Shown one piece after another: positions 3,500-58,329 of a stretch of 64,000 nucleotides of DNA (position 1 is the first letter of the stretch; every line of letters starts with the position of its first letter). Source of the DNA: a virus. The translations under genes were made by a program, and so were the position numbers. Below the pieces are notes generated by a model. The model ran no database searches, was not told the origin of the DNA, and was given only the letters and a program-made list of their open reading frames with translations. The stretch lies in the IMG/VR virus record IMGVR_UViG_3300010149_005285, positions 7,308 to 71,307 of that record; one strand, written 5' to 3'.

Positions 3500-4069
3500 A
3501 TGAAAATAGCAATCACGCAACGTGTGATTGACTTTCGAAACGGTCCATACGACAGCTTAGACCATGGGTTCTATGATATGTTTTCGGGACACAAATTACG
3601 ACCAATTCCAAATAACTTAGAACATTATCAAACTGATATTATAGTTAAAAGTGATTTAGTTGTGTTTACTGGTGGTAATAGTATGGTGCCTGGAAATTGG
3701 CAATATAATGAAAACCGTTTAAGAGTAGAGAAACACACGTTAGATCTAGCCAAACTTTATAATAAACCAATACTAGGTATTAGTCGAGGATGCCAATTCT
3801 TAAATGTAAGTTTTGGTGGAAAATTACGATTTAGTGATAGACATAAACAAGATCATAGTGTATATTATAAAGGAAGTGAAGTTATAGTTCACAGCCGTCA
3901 TGAAGAAATTCTAAGTACTATACCTGTTGGTGCAACATGTTTAGCAACTGATAAAGAAGGTTTTTGTGAGAGTTGGAAACTAGATAATATTATTACAGTA
4001 TTATGGCATCCAGAACGGATGAGAACACATTGGTTACCATATGAAGCATATGGAATATTAGGCTTATAA
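3500..4069 (+). CDS. class I glutamine amidotransferase / peptidase C26-like, Ser at the catalytic Cys position
   Basis: FTGG, KPILGISRGCQ, WHPE. Confidence 0.8.
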   Translation: MKIAITQRVIDFRNGPYDSLDHGFYDMFSGHKLRPIPNNLEHYQTDIIVKSDLVVFTGGNSMVPGNWQYNENRLRVEKHTLDLAKLYNKPILGISRGCQFLNVSFGGKLRFSDRHKQDHSVYYKGSEVIVHSRHEEILSTIPVGATCLATDKEGFCESWKLDNIITVLWHPERMRTHWLPYEAYGILGL

Positions 4070-4080
4070 GGATTAATGAT

Positions 4081-4497
4081 ATGAAAATAGGATTTACATG
4101 CAGTACTTTTGATTTACTCCATGCTGGACATATTGGCATGTTAAGAGAAGCAAAAGCACATTGCGATTATTTAATTGTAGGATTACAAAGCGATCCAACA
4201 TTAGACAGACCAGATACAAAAAACAAACCAATTCAAACAATGGTAGAACGTTATGCACAACTTAACGCATTAAAGTTAGTTGACGAAATTGTTCCTTACC
4301 AAACAGAACAGGATTTAATTGACATACTAGAGTTATTTCAATTAGATGTTAGATTCTTAGGTGAAGAATATAGAGAAAAAGAATTTACAGGAAAAGATAT
4401 ATGTCGCAAACGTGGCATTGATCTACATTTTAACAAACGAGACCATAGGTTTAGTACAACAGATTTAAGAAAAAGGGTATGTAACAATGAGAATTGA
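4081..4497 (+). CDS. cytidylyltransferase (TagD-like)
   Basis: FDLLHAGH (HxGH), LIVGL.SD, R...STT. Confidence 0.9.
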
Positions 4498-5611
4498 AAA
4501 CGAAGTAAAACTTGATTATAGTGATGTTCTTATTAGACCAAAACGTAGTACGTTACAAAGTCGTAAACAAGTAAGACTTGAACGTAAATTTGAATATAGG
4601 AATAGTAAGGAAACTTACGAAGGTATTCCTATTATGGCAAGTAACATGGATGGTGTTGGTACATTTGAAATGGCAGACAAACTTGCTGAAAATAATATCT
4701 TTACATGTCTAGTTAAAACATATACAGTAGATCAACTTGTAGAATACTTTAATAGTGATAATCCAAAACGTACAGAAAATGTTGCAATGAGTATTGGCAC
4801 AAGTGATGCTGACTTTTTAAAGTTAGTTGATGTACAATCAAAAGTTAAAAGTAATTTGAAATATGTATGTATGGATATTGCAAATGGTTACAGTGATCAC
4901 TTTGCGGCAAGAGTGCGTAAGGTACGTGATCAGTTTTCAAATATTGTAATTATAGCAGGTAACGTAGTTACTGGAGAAATGACAGAGGAGTTAATTTTAA
5001 GTGGAGCTGATATTGTTAAAGTGGGCATTGGTCCCGGGTCTGTTTGCACTACTAGGATTCAAACTGGTGTTGGATATCCGCAGTTATCGGCAGTTATCGA
5101 ATGTGCAGATGCCGCCCATGGACTTGGGGGTCACATTATTGCTGACGGCGGGTGTACTTGCCCTGGAGATGTCGCTAAGGCCTTTGCAGGTGGAGCAGAT
5201 TTTGTTATGCTTGGTGGCATGCTTGCTGGGCACGATCAAGGCGGCGGCAAAGTAATTACTAAATTTTATACAACAAATGAATTAGAATATGAAGTAGGCG
5301 AGCATTTAAATAATCGCAAACAAAAGATAGAAGAAAAACATTTTGTGCAATTCTACGGTATGAGTAGTGATGCGGCAAACACTAAACACTTTGGTGGACT
5401 AAAAGATTATCGTAGTAGTGAAGGACGTGAAGTACTTGTACCATATCGTGGTGAAGTTGCTAATACACTTCAGGATATACTAGGTGGGTTACGCAGTACA
5501 TGCACATATGCAGGTGCATTAAAGTTAAAACAACTTAGTAAGTGTACAACATTTGTAATGGTAAACAATCAATATAATCGTACATACGAAGGCACAACAA
5601 CAAAACTATAG
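4487..5611 (+). CDS. guaC: GMP reductase
   Basis: [58 protein letters not shown]. Confidence 0.96.
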
Positions 5612-5701
5612 TACTGTAAAGGTATGCAACTAACGCAAATCGTATTTGCAAATAGTGCAATACTACTTACTTAATTTTTTTAACCTTCTTAGATAAATAG
5701 A

Positions 5702-5885
5702 GTTGTAATAAAAACGTTACAACAACAAAAGCGACCTCAGCTTAGAAAAAATGAGTGGCACTCGGGAAAGACCAGGGCATAACCCATGCCTTACAAGTTG
5801 GCGCAGTCGAAAGATAGGCGCTGTAGGTGGCAGCCTGGATAGACAGGCAAAAAAAATGGATGCTTTCCCAAAAACATCCACACAT
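5702..5885 (+). ncRNA. putative structured RNA / long 5' leader (unassigned family)
   Basis: GC-rich island after TAAATA (5694-5699); several hairpins; GGGAAAG (5764-5770) is complementary to loop CTTTCCC (5863-5869). Confidence 0.6.
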
Positions 5886-5902
5886 ATAACGGAGAATATA
5901 AA

Positions 5903-6100
5903 ATGACAAAACACTTTTTTAGTGCATGGTCATGGATATTTGGCGGCTCACCGCGAAGTGTGGCCTACGAAAAAAATCTAATGACTTTTGCCAAAACTGA
6001 ATACGGCAAAGACTGGCAATTTGCTTATAACTTTATGCTAGAAAACGATGGCAGAGCTCCATCATACAGAGAGAACAAAAACCTTAAAGGATGGATATAA
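5903..6100 (+). CDS. small hypothetical protein
   Basis: GGAGA SD, 65 aa. Confidence 0.75.
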   Translation: MTKHFFSAWSWIFGGSPRSVAYEKNLMTFAKTEYGKDWQFAYNFMLENDGRAPSYRENKNLKGWI

Positions 6101-6318
6101 TGTCAACATTAACAATTTATAGAACAACATGTAACATTTGTGACGCAATAGCAAATGTAACAAAAAGAGTATTCGCAAGAATGATAGAGATGGGTGAAAC
6201 AGCAGGAAGATCAAAAGCTGCTTCAGAACTTGCTCGTCAAGGATACTATAAAGAAGCACAAGCATTAATGATGGAAATTAAATCTTTACGTAAAGAAATA
6301 GAGGAAGAATCAAAATGA
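6100..6318 (+). CDS. small protein, N-terminus similar to the next gene
   Basis: MSTLT..TTCNICD resembles MTTLTATYCTICE; TAATG coupling places the start at 6100. Confidence 0.7.
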   Translation: MSTLTIYRTTCNICDAIANVTKRVFARMIEMGETAGRSKAASELARQGYYKEAQALMMEIKSLRKEIEEESK

Positions 6319-6530
6319 CAACATTAACAGCAACTTATTGTACTATCTGTGAAAAGGTAAATACTTTTTTCAAAGGGATCAAAGAAGCACATGATAAACG
6401 TCAATCACGTAGATCGACATACAAAGCATTAAGCTCTTTATCAGATGCTGAATTGAATGACATTGGAATCTGCCGTGGTGATATTAATCATATTGCTAAT
6501 GGTGGTGAAGTCTATAGAAGGACTTATTAA
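6315..6530 (+). CDS. DUF1127 (YjiS-like) small protein
   Basis: RRSTYKALSSLSDAELNDIGICRGDI. Confidence 0.88.
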   Translation: MTTLTATYCTICEKVNTFFKGIKEAHDKRQSRRSTYKALSSLSDAELNDIGICRGDINHIANGGEVYRRTY

Positions 6531-9439: not shown

Positions 9440-9937
9440 TTGTTGAAAGTAATCAGAGATTCAATTGATAACTTTTTTAAATGGGTATCATCTAGCGAAT
9501 TAGTTGAACTAACAAATATTGATGTTTCAGAAGATCCAGTAAGGCCTAATTTGGATCTAGAGTTTAGAACAACTTGGGGCAGACAAATATTTGGACTAAA
9601 GCATAACGATGAAATACATGGAATTATATGTATAGCATATTGTAATGATGTACCCCAAAGCGAAAGAGAACTAAGTCTAATAAGTCAGAATGCTAACTTA
9701 CGTGATAATGCTAGTATAGCGATAGCATACACAGTATGGTCACGTAAGAAAGGCGCTGGCAGAGAAATTGTAGCAAAATTAAAAGATTACTACCAATCAA
9801 ATAGTAAAATTGAAAGATTAATTACATTATCTCCATTAACACCAGTAGCAACACATTTCCATATTAGTAATGGAGCAAAGTTGTTGCAACATAACCATAA
9901 TACACAAAATTTTGAATATACACTAAAAAAAGGTTGA
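9440..9937 (+). CDS. hypothetical protein (possible GNAT-like fold)
   Basis: YTVWS.KKGAGR, TLSP, FH..NGA; TTG start after AGGAG. Confidence 0.6.
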   Translation: MLKVIRDSIDNFFKWVSSSELVELTNIDVSEDPVRPNLDLEFRTTWGRQIFGLKHNDEIHGIICIAYCNDVPQSERELSLISQNANLRDNASIAIAYTVWSRKKGAGREIVAKLKDYYQSNSKIERLITLSPLTPVATHFHISNGAKLLQHNHNTQNFEYTLKKG

Positions 9938-9964
9938 CAGTAACAACCTTAGAGTGTATAAATA
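9934..9964 (+). promoter_or_regulatory. composite sigma70 / late promoter of tmRNA
   Basis: TTGACA-17-TATAAA overlapping TATAAATA. Confidence 0.7.
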
Positions 9965-9967
9965 GTA

Positions 9968-10267
9968 ACTGCAACGTTGAAGCAATTTGACGACTAGCCA
10001 GGACCTCGGGGCAGTACCGAGCAGCTCCACCATATACGTTTCAAGAAAGTGCCCGATCTAAAGGGCGTGAAGTGTAGGAACGTATTTGATGGGGCTGAAC
10101 TAGGATCGACTGATAGGATAGAAAAGTGGAGTTGCCCGGATCTAAGCTCGGTTAACGCGAAGAAAAACTATAATTGCAAACGACAATTATCAGCCAGAAA
10201 TGGCATTAGCGGCTTAGTTAAACTAAGCACGTAGGGGTGGGTACTACCTGGCAACAGAAGTGCCTCC
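9968..10267 (+). ncRNA. ssrA: two-piece (circularly permuted) tmRNA
   Basis: Acceptor piece ends CAGCTCCACCA (10032); intervening hairpin; coding piece starts GGGGCTGAA..GGATCGAC (10091); G3.U70 pair; tag ANDNYQPEMALAA* at 10176-10217; outer ends approximate. Confidence 0.93.
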
Positions 10268-10309
10268 AAATAATAGAATTTGGGATCATTTATAAATTAA
10301 GGAACATTT

Positions 10310-11000: not shown

Positions 11001-11077
11001 GGACCATTAGCTCAGCTGGATAGAGCGCCTGTCTACGGAACAGGAGGCCAGGAGTTCGAATCTCTTATGGTCCGCCA
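11001..11077 (+). tRNA. tRNA-Arg(ACG)
   Basis: Cloverleaf, anticodon arm CCTGT-CTACGGA-ACAGG, TTCGAAT, encoded CCA; upstream TTGACT..TATTAT. Confidence 0.95.
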
Positions 11078-13679: not shown

Positions 13680-13756
13680 CCGCTCTTAGCTCAGCTGGAT
13701 AGAGCAACTGCCTTCTAAGCAGTAGGTCACAGGTTCGAATCCTGTAGAGCGGGCCA
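13680..13756 (+). tRNA. tRNA-Arg(TCT)
   Basis: ACTGC-CTTCTAA-GCAGT, encoded CCA. Confidence 0.95.
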
Positions 13757-13761
13757 ATTCA

Positions 13762-13846
13762 GCCTCCTTGATGGAATAGGTAGACATAACAGACTTAAAA
13801 TCTGTGGCCATATGGCGTCCCGGTTCGAGTCCGGGAGGAGGCACCA
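13762..13846 (+). tRNA. tRNA-Leu(TAA)
   Basis: ACAGA-CTTAAAA-TCTGT, long variable arm, CCA. Confidence 0.95.
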
Positions 13847-13851
13847 AACAT

Positions 13852-13928
13852 ACTCTTGTAGCATAGCGGTCTAATGCCACCCGCTCATAACGGGTCGATC
13901 ACAGGTTCGAATCCTGTCGGGAGTACCA
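13852..13928 (+). tRNA. tRNA with CAT anticodon (Ile2 or elongator Met)
   Basis: ACCCG-CTCATAA-CGGGT, CCA; lacks initiator features. Confidence 0.88.
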
Positions 13929-13938
13929 AAAACATTAA

Positions 13939-14014
13939 GGGCCCTTAGCTCAGTTGGTAGAGCAACTGACTTTTAATCAGTAGGTCGATGGTTCGAACCC
14001 ATCAGGGCTCACCA
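13939..14014 (+). tRNA. tRNA-Lys(TTT)
   Basis: ACTGA-CTTTTAA-TCAGT, CCA. Confidence 0.95.
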
Positions 14015-16749: not shown

Positions 16750-17991
16750 TTGGACGTGAAAGACGATAATGATTTGCAACGAGAACAAGGAATCTATAAA
16801 GAGTATTCTAAAGTAGAACATGGCAAAGCATGGTGTCCTATACCTTTTAACGCTATAAGTTTTCACCCAACAGGTGTATTAACCCGTTGTATGATGAGTG
16901 ATGTACCTATGGGTGAAGACTTTGATAGTGAAGAAATGCAAAAACTTCGTACTGATATGCTTAACGGCATTTGGGATAAAGAAGGTTGCATTAATTGCCT
17001 TAAGAAAGAAGAACAAGGCAACATAAGTCAAAGACAAAAATGGTTACAACGTAACCCACAAGATTTCAAAAACACAGATGGATATATAAATCCAAAAGTA
17101 ACAGGTAATCCTGTTAATCATATGTTTATCAACTACAGTAATATTTGTAATTTTAAATGTAGAATGTGTAGCCCAGGATATAGTAATAGTCTTATTCCAG
17201 AGCATAAACATCTAAATACACTTGGACTAGGTAGAAAAGTTAAACCAGAAATTATCAAAAATAGAAATTTCATTAATACATACTTAAAAGAGAATCCAGA
17301 AAAATTAGATAGTTTGTCAAGTATATGGATTACAGGCGGCGAACCGTTTATGGATGATAATTGTTTTGAGCTTATGGACATATTAAATGAATATGATAAG
17401 TCATTTGATATGGATGTTGTAATTACTACAAATGGATCTAAAGTAGATCTTAATAAATTACAAAAGTTTGAGAATTTAAAATGGTTTGAACTTGATTTAA
17501 GTATTGATGCACCAAGCAAGATGTTTGAATATATGCGTAGTGATGGGTTATGGAAATGGGAACAGATGCGTAGCTTAATAGATGATCTAATGCATTTTAA
17601 AAAACAGAATGACAGTTGGTTCAATATGTGCTATAATTCTAGCATTCAAGCATATAATTTTGACACAGTAGTTGAATTTAACGAATTATGCAAAGAAGCA
17701 GGTGCATTAAACAATACAAGGATGTTAATATTTCCTGAACATTTAAGATTAAATGTACTACCGTTAGATATTCGTATGCAAGAATATGAAAAAATAAAAG
17801 ATTATAAAGTGGTAAATGACCCAAGGTTTCAAAGAACATTTGATGATGTACTTAAAAACTTACAGGCACCGCAAGCAAGAAAAGAAATGGTAGACAAGTT
17901 TAAAATATTTACAAAAGCACAAGATAAATACAGAAACAAAACAATGCTTGATTATCACAAAACATTAGGTAACTTTATATATAATGAATAA
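16750..17991 (+). CDS. radical SAM protein with N-terminal twitch/SPASM-like domain
   Basis: CNFKCRMC, TGGEPF, TTNGS, SID; N-terminal WC..PF..C..CxxC. Confidence 0.9.
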   Translation: MDVKDDNDLQREQGIYKEYSKVEHGKAWCPIPFNAISFHPTGVLTRCMMSDVPMGEDFDSEEMQKLRTDMLNGIWDKEGCINCLKKEEQGNISQRQKWLQRNPQDFKNTDGYINPKVTGNPVNHMFINYSNICNFKCRMCSPGYSNSLIPEHKHLNTLGLGRKVKPEIIKNRNFINTYLKENPEKLDSLSSIWITGGEPFMDDNCFELMDILNEYDKSFDMDVVITTNGSKVDLNKLQKFENLKWFELDLSIDAPSKMFEYMRSDGLWKWEQMRSLIDDLMHFKKQNDSWFNMCYNSSIQAYNFDTVVEFNELCKEAGALNNTRMLIFPEHLRLNVLPLDIRMQEYEKIKDYKVVNDPRFQRTFDDVLKNLQAPQARKEMVDKFKIFTKAQDKYRNKTMLDYHKTLGNFIYNE

Positions 17992-19276
17992 CCCAACAGA
18001 TATAAACAAAGATAAATTTATTATACCTGCAGAAGACATTGTTACTAAAGTAGTAGAAGATGATAACTGGAAAAACCTTCATAGTAAGAGTTGGTGTCCA
18101 GTTCCTTTTAATACTATTAGTTGGCATCCGTCTGGCGTAGTAAGTCGTTGTATGATGAGCGATGACGATATGGGAGAAAGCCACGACAGTAAAGAAATGC
18201 AATCATTACGTCAAAATATGCTTGACGGTAAATGGGATACTTATGGATGTACCAACTGTTTAAATAGAGAAAAGAATGGACAAAAAAGTCAACGTATGAA
18301 TTGGCTTGGAAAAAGTATGATGGATCAGCTAGGAAATCCTGAACCATATCGTACTCCACAATTAAAAGGAAATAAAATAAGTCACTTATTTGTAAACTTC
18401 AGTAACGTATGTAATTTTAAATGTAGAATGTGTAGTCCAAATTATAGTAATAGTTTGATACCTGAAGCTAAACATATGAATAGTAAGTTTCCTAGAGAAT
18501 ACAAAAAGTTTCAATGGGCTAATCCAAAAAACTTTAATAGTATTATTCCTTACTTAGAAAACAATCCAAAAGTATTAAAAGGTATTAGAAGTATTTGGAT
18601 GACAGGTGGTGAGCCATTTATGGATGATAGTCCATACAGATTAATGGAACTTATTGAAGAATTTGGACATCCAGAAAAAATTAAAATGGTTATTACTACT
18701 AATGGATCTAAACTAGATGTAAGTAGATTAGGTGCATTTGAAAAATTAAAAAAACTTACACTTGATATTAGCATCGATGCCGCAGGACCTATGTTTGAAT
18801 ATATGCGTAGTAATAGAGTATTTACATGGAGTCAAATGGAAGAACAATGTGGGAAATTATCTAAGTTCTCACAAGAGAACAAATGGTTTGGAATACAAAT
18901 TAATGCCAGCTATCAAATATTTAATTATGACAATACACTAGACTTTTTAGATTTTGTATATGATCATAAAGCTGATAGTAATTTAAGATTAGTTGTGTTT
19001 CCAAAACATCTAAGAGCAGGTAACTTACCAGATTCGTATAAAAAAGATGCACATAACATTATTAATAAAGCAGAATTAAGATATCACAATAAAGATGTAC
19101 ACAATATTAGAACACTTAATGATATGCGAAGAGCCCTTGATACTAAAGAACATCACTTAACAGTATTTCAAGAGTTAGTACGTGAACAAGATAAATTTAG
19201 AGAAATATATTTACATGAATATCATGAGGTATTAGCAGAAATAATTTACGGACCAAAACAACCATGCCTGTTTTAG
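17984..19276 (+). CDS. radical SAM protein, tandem paralog of the previous gene
   Basis: CNFKCRMC, TGGEPF, TTNGS. Confidence 0.9.
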   Translation: MNNPTDINKDKFIIPAEDIVTKVVEDDNWKNLHSKSWCPVPFNTISWHPSGVVSRCMMSDDDMGESHDSKEMQSLRQNMLDGKWDTYGCTNCLNREKNGQKSQRMNWLGKSMMDQLGNPEPYRTPQLKGNKISHLFVNFSNVCNFKCRMCSPNYSNSLIPEAKHMNSKFPREYKKFQWANPKNFNSIIPYLENNPKVLKGIRSIWMTGGEPFMDDSPYRLMELIEEFGHPEKIKMVITTNGSKLDVSRLGAFEKLKKLTLDISIDAAGPMFEYMRSNRVFTWSQMEEQCGKLSKFSQENKWFGIQINASYQIFNYDNTLDFLDFVYDHKADSNLRLVVFPKHLRAGNLPDSYKKDAHNIINKAELRYHNKDVHNIRTLNDMRRALDTKEHHLTVFQELVREQDKFREIYLHEYHEVLAEIIYGPKQPCLF

Positions 19277-24185: not shown

Positions 24186-24852
24186 CCCTTGGTTTATTCT
24201 AGGAGTAGAGCCAAACGCTTCTCTTAGAGAAATAAAGCAAGCATACAAAAGGTTAGCATTAAAAAATCATCCAGACAAAGGCGGAACAATTGCTGAATGG
24301 TTAAATATAAGTAAAGCATACGAAACAATCACACAACAAAAACATGTACCAATCATAAAAGCATCAGATACTAAAATGTTTAATATAGCTCTATCTTTAA
24401 AACAACAAATAGAAGGTTTAAATGATTATATTCAAGTTGAAGATGAAGAAGAATTATTCATAAAAGTTAGCATTCCGCCTGGTGCATTAGCTGGTGATAA
24501 GTTTAAAGTTACTAATAAAGGCAAAAAATATATAATAAATGTTAAAGAATTGGCAGATAAGGTCTTTACAAGAAACGGAAATAATATTATAATGTATAAA
24601 ACATTAGATATAATTGACGTATTGAAATGTAACACATTTATTATTTTAACTCCTATGGGCGACTATTGCGAAATAGATATTCCACCAGGAACAGAAACAG
24701 GAAGTATTATCAGTGTCAAAGAGCAAGGATTATATAACCGAAAAACAAAAAAGAGAGGAAGTTTAAGAATTAATATAAAAGTAAATATTCCACATATAAC
24801 TGACTCTAATATTAATGAATTTATAAAAAGGCTTAAAGATGACAGACATTGA
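24169..24852 (+). CDS. DnaJ/CbpA-like co-chaperone
   Basis: ILGV..AS..EIKQAYKRLALKNHPDKGG; C-terminal IPPGT..G..G.L. Confidence 0.9.
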   Translation: MKTFNNPWFILGVEPNASLREIKQAYKRLALKNHPDKGGTIAEWLNISKAYETITQQKHVPIIKASDTKMFNIALSLKQQIEGLNDYIQVEDEEELFIKVSIPPGALAGDKFKVTNKGKKYIINVKELADKVFTRNGNNIIMYKTLDIIDVLKCNTFIILTPMGDYCEIDIPPGTETGSIISVKEQGLYNRKTKKRGSLRINIKVNIPHITDSNINEFIKRLKDDRH

Positions 24853-27100
24853 AAAAATTGTAATAACTGCTATTAACTTGGCTAAAAAGTTTAAACACGA
24901 ATATGTTACTATTGAACATTTGGCAGCGGTTATTTTAGATGATCCACAAGTAATAGCTATGTGTTACGAGATTAATGCAGATGCAGAAAGTTTGCAAATA
25001 GCATTAATTGAATATCTAGAAAAAGAATGTAGTGAATTAGTATCAAATACTAAAGAAGAACCAAACCCTGCTAAAACACAAATGCTTGAACGTGTATTTA
25101 ATAGAGCATTGACACAAGCCTTATTTCAAGGCAAGAAAGCAATTAATCAATTAGACTTAGTGTTAAGTATACTAGGTGAAGAACACAGTGTATCAGCAAA
25201 ATATGCAGAGCAGTTAGGTCTAAACAAAAACAAAGTAATGAGTTGGATGCAAGATACTGCCGCAATGAAAGATGAACAAATTTTTGGTCCTATGGATGGC
25301 TTTGCACCGGGCGTAGGCGGACATGCTCAAAGACAACCTACACCACGTGAAGTATTAGTACAGTATTGTAATAATATGAATGAAGCAAGTCAAGATTATG
25401 ATGATGTTGTTGGTCGTAGATCAGAATTAAAAGATTTAGTACAAACAGTAGCACGTAAGAAAAAGTCTAATGCTATTTTAACAGGTGGCAGTGGCGTTGG
25501 TAAAACAGCTATTGTACAAGGATTAGCAAAACTTATTGTAGAAGGACAAGTTCCAGATTTAATTAAAGACAAAGTAGTATGGGAACTAGATATGACAAAA
25601 CTAGTTGCTGGTACAAAATATAGAGGTGACTTTGAAGAACGTATGAAACAATTAGGTGAGGCGTTAATTAAAGAACCTAATATTATTTTGTTTATTGATG
25701 AAATACATCAAATAATTGGAGCAGGTAGTACAAACGGTACTATGGATGCTGGTAATATGTTAAAACCTGCATTAAGCAGTGGACAGTTAAAAGTCATTGG
25801 TGCTACAACAGATGAAGAATATAGAAAAGTATTTGAAAAAGAAAGTGCGTTAGCACGTAGGTTTACAAAGATTGTAGTTGATGAACCTAATTTACAAGAT
25901 GCAAAAGAAGTATTAAAAAATACACTTATATCATATGAAGATTATCATAATGTAACAATTGATCCATCAGCAGCTGATCTTGCAGTTGATTTAAGTGATC
26001 AATATATTTTTAATAAGAAACTTCCAGATAAAGCATTTGATATCATTGATAGAGCATGTGCTTTTAATAGAATATTACCAGAAACAGATCGTGTAACAAT
26101 TATTGGAGACAATGAAATAAGATCAGAAGTAGCACGGTTAACTGGAATACCAAAAGAGCATTTAGGAACAGCAGAAGATAAAGAAACTGCTACAAAACAT
26201 ACAGAAGTAAAAGCATTTTTAGAAAGTACAGTATTTGGACAACAACAAGCAATTGATCGTGTGGTAGATAGTATTACAGTAAGTATGGCAGGATTAAAAG
26301 ATCCTATCAAGCCTATTGCAAGCTATTTGTTTACAGGACCAACTGGTGTTGGTAAAACTGAACTTGCAAAACGTTTATCACAAACAATGAGTATGAAACT
26401 TGTACGGTATGATATGGCAGAATATCAAGAACGTCATACAGTATCAAAACTTATTGGATCGCCTCCAGGTTATGTAGGACACGGTGATGGTAAAGCAGGT
26501 GATGGATTATTAATTAGTCAATTAGAAGACAATCCAAATTGTGTACTACTACTAGATGAAGTTGAAAAAGCACACCCAGATTTAATGAGTGTACTATTGA
26601 GTCTATTAGACGAAGGTACACTTACAAGTAGTACAGGTAAAGTTGTAAGTGCAAAAAATTCAATTATTATTATGACAAGTAATTTAGGTGCAAAAGATGC
26701 ATCAATTAAAACAATAGGATTTAACGAAGAAACGTTTAATCATAAAGCAGTAGATGATGCAGTTAAGAATTTCTTTGCCCCAGAATTCCGTAACAGGTTA
26801 GACGGCATTGTTAAGTTTAATGCATTAGCAAGAAATGATATGAAACGTATTGTTGTTAAATTCTTAGGCGAACTAGAAACATATGTAGATTCTAGGCATA
26901 TTGTTATTAATTGGGGACCTGAATTATTGGCTATGCTTGAAGATAAAGGATACGACCCTACTATGGGTGCTAGACCTTTAGCACGATTAATTAATGAAGA
27001 AGTAAAACTACCATTAGCAAAATATCTTCTAGATCATGACGGCCAATACACATTGGATATTGACTATAAGAAAGATAAGTTGCTGATTAATGGAAAATAA
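24839..27100 (+). CDS. clpA: ATP-dependent Clp protease ATPase subunit ClpA
   Basis: HEYVTIEHL, two AAA+ modules (GVGKT, KYRGDFE; GPTGVGKT, PPGYVG, DEVEKAH), IGF loop, no ClpB middle domain. Confidence 0.93.
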   Translation: MTDIEKIVITAINLAKKFKHEYVTIEHLAAVILDDPQVIAMCYEINADAESLQIALIEYLEKECSELVSNTKEEPNPAKTQMLERVFNRALTQALFQGKKAINQLDLVLSILGEEHSVSAKYAEQLGLNKNKVMSWMQDTAAMKDEQIFGPMDGFAPGVGGHAQRQPTPREVLVQYCNNMNEASQDYDDVVGRRSELKDLVQTVARKKKSNAILTGGSGVGKTAIVQGLAKLIVEGQVPDLIKDKVVWELDMTKLVAGTKYRGDFEERMKQLGEALIKEPNIILFIDEIHQIIGAGSTNGTMDAGNMLKPALSSGQLKVIGATTDEEYRKVFEKESALARRFTKIVVDEPNLQDAKEVLKNTLISYEDYHNVTIDPSAADLAVDLSDQYIFNKKLPDKAFDIIDRACAFNRILPETDRVTIIGDNEIRSEVARLTGIPKEHLGTAEDKETATKHTEVKAFLESTVFGQQQAIDRVVDSITVSMAGLKDPIKPIASYLFTGPTGVGKTELAKRLSQTMSMKLVRYDMAEYQERHTVSKLIGSPPGYVGHGDGKAGDGLLISQLEDNPNCVLLLDEVEKAHPDLMSVLLSLLDEGTLTSSTGKVVSAKNSIIIMTSNLGAKDASIKTIGFNEETFNHKAVDDAVKNFFAPEFRNRLDGIVKFNALARNDMKRIVVKFLGELETYVDSRHIVINWGPELLAMLEDKGYDPTMGARPLARLINEEVKLPLAKYLLDHDGQYTLDIDYKKDKLLINGK

Positions 27101-42233: not shown

Positions 42234-43412
42234 ATGACAGACAAATATTGTATATATACAAATAACTTTACATTCGTTGACAATGACGGGTATGTAGCGT
42301 TATGTTGTAAAAACTTAAAAAACAAACTAGATCAATATCATATTAAAGATTATAAATTAAGTGATATTTGGAACAGTCCAGAAATGCATAGTGTTAGAGC
42401 AGAAATTGCCGACGGCGGTGAACCTATGGGTTGCTTTAAATGCTACGATCCAGAACGTGAAGGAGTACGTAGTTTTAGACAAAAAGCATTAGGAATGATT
42501 AATAAAGGTGTTCCATTTCAAGATGAAAAAATACATGCACTTGATTTAAGACTAGGTAATGTATGTAACTTAGCATGTGTAATGTGCTTTGCAGGTAACA
42601 GTAATAAAATATTACAAAATCATAAAACTATGGCAACACATTTTAATTGGAAAGAAGGCCGTTTAGAAAAAGAAGCAAAAAAATATCACAAAAGCAATTA
42701 CGATTGGAGTGATGATCCAAGAGCGTGGGACAACATTATTAGTAGTGTTGACAAAGATTTAAAACATGTATACCTAGCAGGAGGTGAACCTTTTTATCTT
42801 AAAAACTTTCCAACAACAGTACAACGTTTAGGATCACTTGCACCCAATGCTCGTTTTGTTATTAATACAAATGGTACAAGACTACTAAGAGAAAAAGATT
42901 TAGAAAAGTTTAAAACTGTTGAAAATGTAAATTTAAGATTTAGTATTGACGGTTGGGGCAAAGCAAATGATTGGACTAGACAAGAAGATGTATGGGAAGA
43001 AAAAATTGCAGTTATGGACCAATACTATAAAGAATTTAAATTGCGTATATGGGATATTACAGCCAACAGTTTAAGTGTAAGACATATTCCACAACTAATA
43101 AAATACTTATGGGAACATTACCCAAATGCTAAAGTACAAATAAGACCGGTTATTAACAAAACTGAAGTTCTTATGGAAAACATTCCAGATAGATTTAAAG
43201 CAGAATCATTAAAATTCTTCGAAGACAATAAACAAAAACTAGAAGGTGTTGATCATGTTATAAATGAAATGCGAAGACCTTTTAACAATGATCCAAAACG
43301 TAAAGCAACAGTTAAACAATTTGTTGAATATTACGATACCTACGGAGCAGTTACAATGGAAAGTTTTGATCCAGAGCTAGCTGATTGGATCTATGGCGAT
43401 GCAGAAGAATAG
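42234..43412 (+). CDS. radical SAM protein with N-terminal twitch/SPASM-like domain
   Basis: C..CC..CFKC; CNLACVMC, AGGEPF, NTNG, SIDG. Confidence 0.9.
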   Translation: MTDKYCIYTNNFTFVDNDGYVALCCKNLKNKLDQYHIKDYKLSDIWNSPEMHSVRAEIADGGEPMGCFKCYDPEREGVRSFRQKALGMINKGVPFQDEKIHALDLRLGNVCNLACVMCFAGNSNKILQNHKTMATHFNWKEGRLEKEAKKYHKSNYDWSDDPRAWDNIISSVDKDLKHVYLAGGEPFYLKNFPTTVQRLGSLAPNARFVINTNGTRLLREKDLEKFKTVENVNLRFSIDGWGKANDWTRQEDVWEEKIAVMDQYYKEFKLRIWDITANSLSVRHIPQLIKYLWEHYPNAKVQIRPVINKTEVLMENIPDRFKAESLKFFEDNKQKLEGVDHVINEMRRPFNNDPKRKATVKQFVEYYDTYGAVTMESFDPELADWIYGDAEE

Positions 43413-45881: not shown

Positions 45882-47189
45882 ATGCTGATTAATGAAGTCC
45901 TTGTATATGAAGAACGATTAAATGCAACGCCTATTATTAGTCCTGCTATAAAAACCCTTGATAAAGTATTTAAAGACAATAGACACGAAATGCGTATAGT
46001 TGGAGGAGCAGTACGAGATATTGCTTTAGGAAAATCACCAAAAGATATTGATTTTGCTACAGATGCTACTCCAGATGAAATGATGGCTATACTTGATAAA
46101 GCAGGCATAAGACATAAACCTACAGGATTAGAACACGGTACTATTACTGCTATCCTAGATAACGAACCATTTGAAATTACAACACTAAGAGCAGACAAAG
46201 AAACAGACGGCAGACATGCTGAAGTTGAGTTTGTTAAGAGTTGGGAAGAAGATGCTAAACGTAGAGATTTAACATACAATGCCATGAGTATGGATATTGA
46301 TGGAAATGTTTATGACTATTTTGGTGGAATGGATGATTTACAAGATAAAGTCAGTAAGTTTGTAGGTGATGCAGAAAAAAGAATTACTGAAGATTATTTA
46401 AGAATATTACGTTACTTTCGTTTTCAAGGTAGACTATCAAAGCCTACTTGGGACAAAGATACACTAGAAGCAATTACAAAACATGCTAAAGGACTATCCG
46501 GTATTAGTGCCGAGAGAATATGGCAAGAGATGAGCAAAGTACTTTCAGGACAAAATGTTGCAAGTGTAATATCTATGATAGAAAAAACGGGTGTAAGTAA
46601 AGTTATTGGATTATCTACTAACAATGCAAATAGTGTAAAAGATAAGAGCAACCCCGTCTTAGCGTTAGCACAATTGGATAATAGCGTAGATCTTGCTAAA
46701 CGTTGGAAGTTAAGTAACAACGAAACAGAATTATTAAACTTTTTAGTTAAACACAAAAATGATCCACTTGATCAAAAGAAAGTAGAAGATATGATTGCTG
46801 ATGGAGTAAACAAAGACTTAATATCAGCACTAGCAACAATGCAAGGTAAAAGTGTAAACACTGATGCTAAAATACCAAACTTTCCATTAACAGGTGCAGA
46901 CTTAATTGCTAAAGGTATGAAGCCTGGTCCAGAAATGGGTGCAACATTAAACAAATTAAAACAACAATGGAAAGCAAGTAACTTTAAAGCAACTAAACAA
47001 GATTTATTAGGAGAAAACTTTGCAGATGGTAAAGTAAAAGGTAAAAGTAGACCAGGGCGTGTAAAACGTTCAGGTGCTAGTTGTAATGGCAGTGTAACAG
47101 AACTCAGAGCAAAAGCAAAAAAAGCCAGCGGTGAAAAAGCAAAAATGTACCATTGGTGTGCTAATATGAAATCAGGCAAGAAGAAATGA
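45882..47189 (+). CDS. cca: class II CCA tRNA nucleotidyltransferase with appended basic C-terminal module
   Basis: GGAVRD..DIDFAT, EITTLR, RRDLTYNAM, EDYLRILRYFRF, ERI..E; no HD domain. Confidence 0.9.
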   Translation: MLINEVLVYEERLNATPIISPAIKTLDKVFKDNRHEMRIVGGAVRDIALGKSPKDIDFATDATPDEMMAILDKAGIRHKPTGLEHGTITAILDNEPFEITTLRADKETDGRHAEVEFVKSWEEDAKRRDLTYNAMSMDIDGNVYDYFGGMDDLQDKVSKFVGDAEKRITEDYLRILRYFRFQGRLSKPTWDKDTLEAITKHAKGLSGISAERIWQEMSKVLSGQNVASVISMIEKTGVSKVIGLSTNNANSVKDKSNPVLALAQLDNSVDLAKRWKLSNNETELLNFLVKHKNDPLDQKKVEDMIADGVNKDLISALATMQGKSVNTDAKIPNFPLTGADLIAKGMKPGPEMGATLNKLKQQWKASNFKATKQDLLGENFADGKVKGKSRPGRVKRSGASCNGSVTELRAKAKKASGEKAKMYHWCANMKSGKKK

Positions 47190-55935: not shown

Positions 55936-57047
55936 TGTTAGAAACAATTTATCAATTCTGGGGTATTAAACAAGAGCATATCTTTGACGATGTGTTTACA
56001 GGTTATGAAGACCTGTACCCAGAATTTGATAAGCATACGAAAGAGACATATGAAGCAAATCCTGAAAGAACTATTGATACTGTTTTTAATCTCTATCGTA
56101 ATCGTGGGATTGTCCCTATTGTATATTACACCGAAAAAGGACTCAGAAATGAAATCAAAGGGTTTCGTTCCAAGTCATATAACGGTGTGCAAGCTGGAAC
56201 CATTGGACTCGGAAACAACGCCGGCCAAACTATTAATAGATTCCTCTTTACCAACATGCAAACAGCTGAACCAAAAGGTAGAGGATCAAATTCATTAAAG
56301 GATAGATTTTACGATGATGCTAAATTACGCAGGGCTATCAGAATATGCTTTGAGTTTCGCGATGGGAATCGCCTTGTATATCCTACTGCATTGCGCCGTT
56401 CATTGGAACTTGTCACAGGAGAAAACGTACAAAACTTTAAACCTCAACACGCAAGAGCTTTGGCAGAACGCTTATGTCCGGTATTGTGGGGTCGCATTTA
56501 TGATTACTCTTGTGGTTATGGCGGGCGTCTCTTGGGTATTAGTAGTAGCAACCTAAACTATAAATACATAGGCACGGATCCAAACACAGAAACAATTAAA
56601 TATTTAAACTATTTAAATGAACTATTAGGAGCCGATGCTGAATTAATATGTTCTGGTTCTGAAGATTATCAGTGTGAAGATATTGATCTAGCATTTAGCA
56701 GTCCACCATATTTTAATTTGGAGAAATACAGTGACGAAGAAACACAATGCATGGTCAAGTATACAACACTTGATGAATGGTTTGAAGGCTATGTCGGACC
56801 TACTATCGAGAATATCCATAGAGGATTACGAAGCGATGGAACGTTTGCAACGAACATCGCAGACTACAAAAGCTACGGCAACAAGGAATACTACGTTGTG
56901 GACAGGTGGATTGAAACTGCTGAAAAAATTGGGTTCAAACACAAAGAAACTATTAAGATGATGCTTAACACTAGACCCGGAGTAGGCAACGATAAAAAAG
57001 AAGGCAGAGAAAAATTCGAAGGAGTATACGTTTTTGAAAAACGATAA
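55935..57047 (+). CDS. DNA amino-methyltransferase (N6A/N4C type)
   Basis: DYSCGYGGRL (SAM binding), FSSPPYF (catalytic); GTG start. Confidence 0.85.
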   Translation: MLETIYQFWGIKQEHIFDDVFTGYEDLYPEFDKHTKETYEANPERTIDTVFNLYRNRGIVPIVYYTEKGLRNEIKGFRSKSYNGVQAGTIGLGNNAGQTINRFLFTNMQTAEPKGRGSNSLKDRFYDDAKLRRAIRICFEFRDGNRLVYPTALRRSLELVTGENVQNFKPQHARALAERLCPVLWGRIYDYSCGYGGRLLGISSSNLNYKYIGTDPNTETIKYLNYLNELLGADAELICSGSEDYQCEDIDLAFSSPPYFNLEKYSDEETQCMVKYTTLDEWFEGYVGPTIENIHRGLRSDGTFATNIADYKSYGNKEYYVVDRWIETAEKIGFKHKETIKMMLNTRPGVGNDKKEGREKFEGVYVFEKR

Positions 57048-58329
57048 AAGAACTATAATGCAAAGTTACAAAGATGTTCCTGAGGATTCTCTGGTTCATT
57101 GGAAAGCTGATCTTAATAACACTTATTGTGTTGCTCCACATAACGAAGTTCATGTAGATCATTTTGGTGATTATGGTTTTTGTTGTCAATACAGAAAAGG
57201 CTTATTTGGAAATATTAAAACAAAACATGCAAAAGATTTCTTTTGGAATCCTGATTCTGCAGAAGTAAGAGCTAATACAAAAGAAAATGTATGGCCAGAT
57301 GGTTGTGGACGTTGTCAAAAATCAGAGAACAAATCAGGATGGAGTCATCGTTTTGGTTCACAACATGAATGGAATGACCCTGCAAATCCAAGACACGAAT
57401 CAAACATTAATAAATTTTCAATAGATTTTAGCAATGCATGTAATCTTAGATGTACTATGTGTAGTCCAAAACGTAGTACTGGTTGGTATAAAGATGTTAA
57501 CTATTTGTTAGAAAACATGGATAGTATCCAAGAAGTTGATAGAGCAGTAGCAGGAACAAGAATGAAACAACAACAGTATATTATTCCTGCTCGTGTTGTT
57601 GATGAAAATTTAGAAGTATTTTTAGGATGTAAATTAATCGAGTGTAGCGGTGGTGAACCTTTTTATCAACCTCAGTTTTGGCATATGGTAGATAAGTTAA
57701 TTGAACATAACTATACTGGAGATCTAAAGATTGTAACAAACTTGACTTTACTAGACAAAGAAAGAACTGAAAAACTAAAAAAACTTAATACTAGACTTGT
57801 AGTAAGTTTAGATGCAATTGAAGAATTATATGAATACGTAAGACCAGCAGTTGGTACGATTGGAAAATACAAAGGCGAAATGATTCAACAAAGAATTCTT
57901 GATTGTAGTAAGTTATTTCATGTAGGTTTATCTTATACTCCACAGTTACTTAACATGTATAATATTAAGCCTTATATTGAATGGCTTTGGAAACATGAGT
58001 TTTATGGAAAGAGTAAGTTAAATGATCTTACTGGTTTTAATGCGGCTCTTGTTGCCCCACAGTATCTTTGTTTACAAGTACACCCAGACATTGAATATAG
58101 AAAATACTTAGCAGATTGGATTGAAAATGAATGTTTTACTCGTTGGGATAATCCAAAAGAACATGTGTTAAGAGGTGTAGTAAATTTACTTAGAAAACCA
58201 TACGAAGAAGAAGATGAAGATAATTGGAAATTCTTCTGTAAAACAACAGAACTACTTGACAAACACAGAAAAACAAGTATACTTAAATATATTCCGCAAC
58301 TAGAAAAATATTGGATAAGCCCTGAATAA
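57034..58329 (+). CDS. radical SAM protein with N-terminal twitch/SPASM-like domain
   Basis: YCVAP..CC..CGRC; CNLRCTMC, SGGEPF, VTN, SLD; start may be ATG 57058. Confidence 0.9.
   Translation: MKNDKRTIMQSYKDVPEDSLVHWKADLNNTYCVAPHNEVHVDHFGDYGFCCQYRKGLFGNIKTKHAKDFFWNPDSAEVRANTKENVWPDGCGRCQKSENKSGWSHRFGSQHEWNDPANPRHESNINKFSIDFSNACNLRCTMCSPKRSTGWYKDVNYLLENMDSIQEVDRAVAGTRMKQQQYIIPARVVDENLEVFLGCKLIECSGGEPFYQPQFWHMVDKLIEHNYTGDLKIVTNLTLLDKERTEKLKKLNTRLVVSLDAIEELYEYVRPAVGTIGKYKGEMIQQRILDCSKLFHVGLSYTPQLLNMYNIKPYIEWLWKHEFYGKSKLNDLTGFNAALVAPQYLCLQVHPDIEYRKYLADWIENECFTRWDNPKEHVLRGVVNLLRKPYEEEDEDNWKFFCKTTELLDKHRKTSILKYIPQLEKYWISPE

Follow-up and report, generated by a model that had tools for sequence, protein, structure and literature searches.

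The DUF1127 family of bacterial proteins is very large, its members are tiny, and how they act is debated; RNA binding has reportedly been found in Rhodobacter and protein-protein contacts in Agrobacterium. Gene 32 of phage T4 is said to be under autogenous translational control through a 5' pseudoknot leader. Leaders and sponge RNAs of the CsrA/Rsm type carry repeated GGA motifs, both at the SD and in the loops of their hairpins.

A connection between DUF1127 proteins and small RNAs (sRNAs) in alphaproteobacteria, taken as established in the preliminary description of this DNA, is in print (PMC8034643). The arginine-rich DUF1127 protein CcaF1 binds sRNAs that are transcribed together with its gene and influences how they mature (PMC8034643). 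The CcsR 'cuckoo' RNAs, with Rhodobacter and Sinorhizobium CIN1 loci (Rfam ar14, NfeR), are located in the 5' or 3' UTR of DUF1127 genes, expose C-rich anti-SD loops on two hairpins, and are processed by RNase E and bound by CcaF1 (PMC8034643). A DUF1127 gene of S. meliloti is controlled by its leader through uORF-dependent transcription attenuation (PMC12218461). RNA binding does not extend to every DUF1127 protein: for one of them, action on a sensor kinase by protein-protein contacts was reported (PMC12501420). For viruses, a survey of IMG/VR yielded 8,495 novel csRNAs averaging 67 nt, and the same paper mentions the leader control of T4 gene 32 (PMC10690425). The term DUF1127 has no occurrence in the main text of that paper, and none of the listed titles and abstract openings of DUF1127 literature touching on phage, riboswitch or Melnitz describes the RNA presented here.

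The DNA analysed in this study (the window) is a 64-kb part of an IMG/VR virus contig that is 71 kb long and is estimated to be 19% complete. In its DNA polymerase the phage is 47.5% identical to Sinorhizobium phage Phosso and 47.7% identical to Agrobacterium phage Atu_ph07; these relatives are both jumbo phages, which fits the low completeness estimate. A permuted, two-piece alpha_tmRNA was detected at 9930-10270 on the plus strand (Rfam, 103 bits), and this RNA, the DUF1127 gene and the polymerase relatives together indicate an alphaproteobacterial host. To our knowledge, post-transcriptional control of late genes is almost unexplored in jumbo phages related to Atu_ph07.

The leader RNA lies between a late-promoter box and the SD of three coupled small genes. 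Its GC-rich region lies between the stop codon of a gene of the GMP-reductase/IMPDH family (4487-5611) and the 65-aa ORF (5903-6100); the former gene belongs to a stretch of metabolic genes (3500-5611) that also encodes a class-I glutamine amidotransferase/peptidase C26 and a cytidylyltransferase-like protein. GC content was 0.55 at 5750-5849, compared with ~0.27-0.40 in the flanks (window composition). The 3' end of the leader is located ~10 nt ahead of the SD, and both SD and start codon lie at most 25 nt 3' of the RNA. The features of the locus are listed below.

5692-5699, plus strand: T4-type late-promoter-like box GATAAATA, matching a TATAAATA-like late box
5702-5880, plus strand: leader RNA, a GC-rich, strongly folding island of ~185 nt
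5702-5723, plus strand: 5'-terminal hairpin, GUUGUAA (5702-5708) with UUACAAC (5717-5723); folds alone at -7.4 kcal/mol, z -5.49
5729-5755, plus strand: H-type pseudoknot module, seen through covariation over 72 elements
5729-5732 and 5740-5743, plus strand: pseudoknot helix P1, AAGC with GCUU, P1 loop GACCUCA
5744-5751, plus strand: A-rich linker of the pseudoknot
5736-5739 and 5752-5755, plus strand: pseudoknot helix S2, CUCA with UGAG
5762-5775, plus strand: hairpin Ha, UCGG-GAAAGA-CCAG, loop at 5766-5771, with a C5763.A5774 mismatch in the window
5776-5790, plus strand: hairpin Hb, GGCAU-AACCC-AUGCC (GGCAT 5776-5780, ATGCC 5786-5790), the most conserved hairpin
5791-5797, plus strand: conserved unpaired junction UUACAAG
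5800-5822, plus strand: variable hairpin Hc, GGCGC (5800-5804) with GCGCU (5818-5822), inner part GUC-GAAA-GAU; -10.2 kcal/mol, z -2.86
5823-5832, plus strand: second junction GUAGGUGGCA, conserved in sequence
5833-5848, plus strand: hairpin Hd, GCCUG (5833-5837) with CAGGC (5844-5848), loop GAUAGA; -9.5 kcal/mol, z -5.16
5857-5880, plus strand: hairpin He, UGGAUG (5857-5862) with CAUCCA (5875-5880), C-rich loop CUUUCCCAAAAA at 5863-5874
5881-5905, plus strand: CA-rich spacer ACACAUAUAAC, SD GGAG (5891-5894) and start codon ATG (5903-5905), read from the sequence
5903-6530, plus strand: three translationally coupled small genes, from the ORF list
5903-6100, plus strand: 65-aa ORF, first gene of the operon
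6100-6318, plus strand: 72-aa ORF, second gene, TAATG overlap with the first
6315-6530, plus strand: DUF1127 gene of 71 aa, third gene, ATGA overlap; Pfam PF06568, E 5.4e-11

The leader had been placed ahead of a DUF1127 micro-operon. A small-gene operon that includes DUF1127 does follow, but DUF1127 is its third gene and not its first. The 65-aa protein had no match in Pfam, PHROG or NCBIfam and none by tblastn against cultured phages; a Protein Atlas search returned viral hypothetical clusters only, all under threshold. For the 72-aa protein, nothing was found in NCBIfam or PHROGs. The 72-aa and DUF1127 proteins share, by eye, an N-terminal motif T-L-T..Y..C-x-I-C (CNIC, CTIC), which suggests that they share a small domain joined to differing C-termini. 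Of 145 elements scored with home-made regular expressions, 136 had at least one of the three gene families within 1 kb downstream of the leader and 105 had a DUF1127 motif there; the first gene after the leader varied among the three families between loci. ACACAUA-like spacers followed by GGAG were found again in relatives. At several loci that carry the pseudoknot without Ha and have DUF1127 as first gene (L041, L048, L062, L039, L074 and others), inspection by eye places the start codon within the loop of a short hairpin, and in its stem the non-coding strand changes together with codons 2-3 (GCAG..CUGC, GUAG..CUAC, GAAG..CUUC).

With the CcsR/CcaF1 system the locus has in common a structured RNA with a DUF1127 gene and C-rich anti-SD-like loops, the protein partner there being an arginine-rich RNA binder. 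The leader adjoins the DUF1127 gene in the same coupled operon, much as CcsR RNAs lie in UTRs of such genes, and would be co-transcribed with it. In contrast to the tandem two-hairpin CcsR sRNAs, the phage leader is one long multi-helix RNA with purine-rich loops and a pseudoknot, and it stands in a late operon with two further small-protein families. The CcsR motif CCUCCUCCC is absent from 5700-5900, the sole window match (at most one mismatch) being at 13833-13841 on the minus strand. The preliminary description had not recognised a known riboswitch, and the Rfam search agreed: no Rfam 15 family matched 5702-5885 at gathering score. With permissive filters, 5550-5950 gave only two minus-strand matches (E 1.5 and 7.8), so that no family, ar14/CcsR among them if Rfam contains it, matched on the plus strand even at E<=10, and ten loci of divergent relatives (56 kb) gave 0 matches. 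The S. meliloti attenuator likewise combines a DUF1127 gene with a 5' leader, whose control of the operon would be presumptive here; it needs a translated uORF and premature termination (PMC12218461), whereas the ORF in the phage leader is unconserved and no plus-strand terminator was found. The mRNA of gene 32 and the present one, both of T4-type phages, have an H-type pseudoknot near the 5' end, and in both the product could bind the leader; sequence, architecture and downstream genes differ, and autoregulation here is presumptive. Like CsrA/Rsm-type leaders, the phage leader repeats GGA in purine loops (G-GANAGA) and has an AGGAG SD, but its GGA sits at the border of stem and loop instead of the loop centre, and the AAAAGA loops (A-U closed) are without GGA. 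Finally, the leader shares data source and putative class, cis-regulatory RNA directly upstream of phage genes, with the candidates of the IMG/VR survey, which may already contain parts of it unnamed (PMC10690425).

The 5702-5885 region was initially drawn with seven stems and a complementary loop, all of which are in the sequence at the positions given. The plus strand folded at -56.0 kcal/mol compared with -39.8 +/- 3.8 for shuffled sequences (z -4.26; 0/200 as good), and the individual hairpins, each taken alone, folded as drawn. Six of the seven stems matched helices that are conserved in relatives. The seventh, CTTACA (5790-5795) with TGTAGG (5822-5827), overlaps two better-supported helices and is unsupported as drawn because it shrinks in relatives to an invariant 3-bp UAC/GUG or UAC/GUA. 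Other candidates were discarded as well: GCGACCUCAGC with GCUGUAGGUGGC, which closes the minimum-energy fold as a long stem, is missing in the closest relatives, and loop-loop pairings between Hd and He, Ha and Hb, and He and the SD hold, by eye, in subsets only.

Homologs were collected from viral and metagenome collections; since these overlap, distinct sequences and not loci were counted. Upstream DNA anchored on the encoded proteins (6 loci for the 65-aa protein, 31 for the DUF1127 protein) contained the leader in 9 loci by nhmmer. A degenerate pattern of Hb occurred in 45 viral contigs and at least 119 metagenome contigs, with 0 matches in species genomes, and yielded 97 distinct sequences out of 153 loci with sufficient flank. 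Two 18-mers for Hd were present in at least 120 and in 22 viral contigs, most of which lack the Hb pattern and therefore give an unbiased view of the Hb hairpin. Parsing for an Hd-like hairpin together with a perfect 5-bp Hb that is followed by a junction motif returned 178 distinct elements and dropped 30 Hd-like sites without such an Hb. In 185,579 species genomes, the Hd 18-mer gave 25 matches, about the chance expectation, of which only L348 was real by the covariance model. L348 (PAND01000020.1, 293-416) is a full leader copy (E 3.9e-34) with an operon containing two DUF1127 genes, on a 20-kb contig of a marine MAG binned as Flavobacteriales; this may be a mis-binned phage contig. The family occurred only in phage or environmental contigs in the collections searched. 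Neither blastn of the leader against cultured phages nor an exact 22-mer of the window in viral contigs gave a match.

In the MAFFT alignment, Ha and the 5' strand of He fell out of register from one variant to another, so loop-anchored counts and a model-based alignment were used. The covariance model was built from 14 sequences that contain Ha and lack the pseudoknot, and thus without the window's subtype. Across 93 sources it gave 84 matches at E<=0.01, some of them in relatives that share the window's subtype, and in the 64 kb it gave a single match, at 5749-5873 on the plus strand (E 0.0031); the window was also matched (E 1.1e-6) by an nhmmer profile built on 63 sequences from the other subtype. 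In the model alignment of 80 distinct sequences, 97.0% of cells paired compared with 79.2% after shuffling and 32-43% in slid controls, 22 of the 26 pairs of the five hairpins showed changes on both sides, and the covariation score was 0.335 against 0.082 shuffled (0/500 shuffles reached the observed values). Being fitted to the model, this alignment favours the structure; the model-free counts are in agreement.

Those counts cover each helix. In the pseudoknot, whose S2 is the CTCA/TGAG stem of the preliminary description, one P1 pair and one S2 pair switched cleanly in 72 of the 72 elements with the module: the first P1 pair was G-C in 61 and A-U in 11 and never mixed, and the S2 pair was C-G (CCUC...GAG) in 37 and U-A (CUUC...GAA) in 35, three of the latter after a 3-nt insertion. 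A local hairpin, GAGU (5753-5756) with ACUC (5760-5763), competes with S2 in the window. For Ha, 142 of 178 elements had a G[AG]NAGA loop beside Hb, the stem occurring in 17 variants, and 551 of 568 loop-anchored cells were canonical, a level reached by 0/500 shuffles (shuffle mean 0.683); in the window itself the stem of Ha, containing two G-C pairs and the C.A mismatch, is weak. Hb had 14 stem variants among the 81 elements not picked by its pattern, pair types such as GC37/CG19/GU5/AU2, CG47/GC10 and AU52/GC5/GU3 (63 sequences, MAFFT), and both-side changes in 4/5 pairs of the model alignment. The adjoining UUACAAG junction recurred in 47 of 81 elements not selected by it, with variants including UUAAAAG, UCACAAG and UAAAAAA. 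Double changes in Hc are exemplified by a CG19/GC18/UA13 pair (MAFFT, 63 sequences); within the window's subtype three Hc pairs changed on both sides in 5-7 of 17 sequences, and family-wide 7/8 did so in the model alignment. Among 103 elements not picked by the Hd pattern, seven Hd stem variants were counted by a parser demanding at least four pairs, pair 2 being GC70/AU32/UA1. In 176 of 178 elements Hd was followed by a hairpin having 4 bp or more and a CC in the loop, compared with 41 of 178 with shuffled tails; this hairpin, He, had 41 stem-and-loop variants and both-side changes in 5/5 pairs (model alignment). A search for covariation among homologs had been proposed, its absence to count against a structured RNA, and compensatory change proved ample. 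The leader is a real, conserved, structured RNA with covarying helices.

The elements share a 5'-to-3' order of late box, variable 5' hairpin, pseudoknot, Ha, Hb, UACAAG, Hc, junction, Hd, He, CA-rich spacer, SD and start. Among the first 97 sequences, 35, including the window, combined pseudoknot and Ha, 25 had the pseudoknot without the GGGAAAG hairpin (Ha), 36 had Ha only and one had neither module. Hc is absent from some relatives, one locus (L002) is reduced to a long 5' hairpin, Hd and He, and another (L014) lacks a structured leader. Whole modules (pseudoknot, Ha, Hb, Hc) are thus dispensable in some members, while the operon stays. At the 5' end, relatives have unrelated hairpins, by eye, in place of the 5'-terminal one, a module that varies in sequence. 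The second junction reads GUGGUAGC in most relatives of subtypes A and B. Loops vary within limits, being GAGAGA, GGAAGUU, AAAAGA or GAUAGA in Hd and CUUUCCC, UCCUC, ACCUC or AACCA in He. By these comparisons, the window's RNA is one member of a large modular RNA family of uncultured marine phages. A well-supported new family of structured RNA is thereby added to marine phages, including a jumbo phage related to Atu_ph07.

Strand and coding potential were assessed at the same sites. The preliminary description had the RNA follow a late box; GATAAATA, which we take on the model of T4 to be a late promoter, is present at that place, and an upstream box is conserved in relatives. Of 171 elements with enough flank, 162 had NATAAATA upstream on the same strand and 5 had it on the opposite strand, and the window has 16 copies of [GT]ATAAATA on the plus and one on the minus strand. 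These counts support GATAAATA well as a T4-type late-promoter box, shortly downstream of which the transcript would start. It is highly improbable that the signal instead reflects an antisense sRNA on the minus strand, ending at the hairpin 5881-5856 and its T-run, or a 51-aa ORF on the plus strand (5751-5906). A terminator-like site of 11 pairs followed by T7 does lie on the minus strand, which itself folds with z -3.22, and the ORF, situated inside the leader, is open in the window. However, promoter box, SD and genes are all on the plus strand, where no terminator-like site was found between 5500 and 6700. The helices of the 80-row alignment contain about 75 G.U cells, one Hc pair being G.U in 43 of 80 sequences, and all of these would become C.A on the other strand. 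Moreover, the A8 run behind the minus-strand T-run is found in the window only and not in relatives, and of 34 elements in the window's subtype, 26 have no ATG for the ORF, whose length ranges from 21 to 53 aa in the rest. The plus strand and a non-coding nature of the leader are thus well supported by sequence comparison.

A long-range pseudoknot between GGGAAAG (5764-5770) and CUUUCCC (5863-5869) had been proposed at the outset. The complementarity exists and is invariant in the window's subtype, with 7/7 positions in all 32 scored elements, and RNAalifold prefers this pairing there; family-wide covariation was not found. Mean complementarity over 31 distinct combinations was 5.42/7, compared with 5.44/7 when partners were exchanged (618/1000 shuffles as good), the commonest other Ha:He combinations have a central mismatch, and the subtype with the pseudoknot only lacks Ha and hence one partner. 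Given that exchange changes nothing, mismatches are central and Ha is absent from one subtype, the pairing lacks support as a trait of the family; it shows no variation within the window's subtype and is possible in this phage. In the Ha-only subtype, RNAalifold predicted another long-range helix, of (G)UGAU, CGAU or GCAAU with AUCA, AUUG or AUUGC just 5' of He. One of its pairs was U-A in 23, C-G in 8 and U-G in 2 of 34 sequences, and all five pairs were canonical in 88 of 103 parsed elements, with no C.A combination with AUCAU; one element breaks the helix (GCGAU with AUAAU, 3/5 pairs). It has few sequence states and shared ancestry may explain the correlation, so this helix is a candidate only, and it is absent from the window's subtype.

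The long-range helix also bears on the idea of a new riboswitch, a metabolite or ion sensor for translation of the operon. The junctions UACAAG, UGAUUGAC, UGCAC or GUGGUAGC would then form the pocket, and the (G)UGAU/AUCA-AUUG helix of the other subtype would close a three-way junction and compete with He as expression platform. The unpaired junction nucleotides are highly conserved, in one variant the 3' helix strand and the 5' strand of He overlap, and the window's upstream neighbour is a GMP reductase gene. Against this, the helix has the few sequence states, the exception and the subtype limit given above, and the downstream genes encode tiny proteins and no enzymes or transporters. The SD had an unpaired probability of 0.448 in the partition function compared with 0.428 for shuffled leaders, which gives no hint of a platform that sequesters the SD, and no terminator-like site was found on the plus strand between 5500 and 6700. 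That whole hairpins are gained and lost, which is unusual for one aptamer, counts somewhat against a single-ligand aptamer, and we consider a riboswitch quite unlikely.

The same SD value, neither more nor less open than controls, would suit a constitutive element without sensing, whose 5' hairpins protect the late mRNA from 5'-end-dependent decay and whose SD-like purine loops and CA-rich spacer serve as ribosome standby or enhancer sites. A 5'-terminal hairpin directly follows the promoter and could act as a 5'-end stabiliser, the G-GAGAGA loops contain GGAG, and ACACAUA stretches precede the SD in nearly all members. Yet five ordered helices, invariant junctions and specific loops are rarely kept by simple stabilisers over such divergence, and the operon type occurs without the element both at L014 and in the cultured Methylophilales phage Melnitz, which makes this reading distinctly doubtful. 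In Melnitz (L335, MZ577097.1, 30890-31624), genes 44-46, with DUF1127 last, stand behind a late-promoter box and an unrelated leader of ~100 nt with its own closing stem GAAUAAC/GUUAUUC; only the DUF1127 gene of this similar three-gene operon was matched by search, genes 44 and 45 being likened by eye to those of the window, and the covariance model had no match on this phage. Because the Melnitz leader is unrelated and L014 has no structured leader, the operon does not need the leader RNA.

The C-rich loops raise a further alternative, that a trans-acting sRNA is derived from the 5' UTR, cut from the mRNA and then bound and helped to mature by the DUF1127 protein, as a phage counterpart of CcsR and CcaF1. 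Its loops (CUUUCCC, UCCUC and ACCUC in He, NAYCC in Hb) would pair with SD regions of host or phage mRNAs. Such an sRNA would account for the CC-loop hairpin in 176 of 178 elements, the Hb loops that end in CC in most elements, the DUF1127 gene downstream in 105 of 145 and the parallels with CcsR (C-rich anti-SD loops, DUF1127 UTRs, RNase E, CcaF1 binding; PMC8034643). It does not account for the missing CCUCCUCCC motif, the lack of an Rfam match even at E<=10, or an RNA that ends ~10 nt before the SD with no terminator or recognisable processing site, and we judge it unlikely.

We tentatively prefer, as plausible but by no means assured, a cis-regulatory leader bound by protein, or an RNA that joins the small RNA-binding proteins of the operon in an RNP. 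Transcription would start a few bases past the late box at 5692-5699, and the leader folds into the 5' hairpin, the H-type pseudoknot and the five consecutive hairpins Ha, Hb, Hc, Hd and He. Its purine-rich, SD-like G-GANAGA loops (Ha, Hd, sometimes Hc) would be bound by an arginine-rich small protein from the same mRNA, DUF1127 being the prime candidate, and the C-rich anti-SD-like loop of He adjoins the true SD. Binding would set the translation or stability of the operon (autoregulation) or assemble an RNP. This protein-platform reading is favoured because of the repeated purine loops, the modularity, the tie to an operon with an arginine-rich DUF1127 protein and the precedent of CcaF1; the G[AG]NAGA loop is repeated in Ha and Hd, with AAAAGA in some Hc. 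The conserved unpaired UACAAG, UGAUUGAC and UGCAC speak against it, being more typical of a ligand pocket or tertiary core than of plain protein-binding hairpins. So do the predicted SD accessibility, which equals that of shuffled leaders, the operons of Melnitz and L014 that lack this RNA, and the DUF1127 protein reported to act through protein-protein contacts.

In a bolder form, unlikely though not far-fetched, structured leader and cognate DUF1127-type protein from one late transcript would constitute a phage RNA-protein module that acts as a switch or a trans-acting decoy, its SD-like and anti-SD-like loops competing with real ribosome-binding sites; a variant would be a new, widespread class of phage riboswitch. 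If so, the phage would reprogram translation late in infection, and the GGGAAAG:CUUUCCC pairing of the window's subtype would be the anti-anti-SD state of the switch. The many natural RNA variants and the three proteins of 65-72 aa offer a compact, testable system for asking what DUF1127 and the two other small-protein families bind, and in what way.

Other genes were also noted in the 64 kb. Five tRNA genes lie on the plus strand, at 11001-11074 and, four of them tightly clustered, at 13680-14011, and a tRNA nucleotidyltransferase gene lies at 45882-47189. Four radical-SAM-domain proteins (16750-19276, 42234-43412, 57034-58329) and a Lon-like ATP-dependent protease (24839-27100) are encoded as well.
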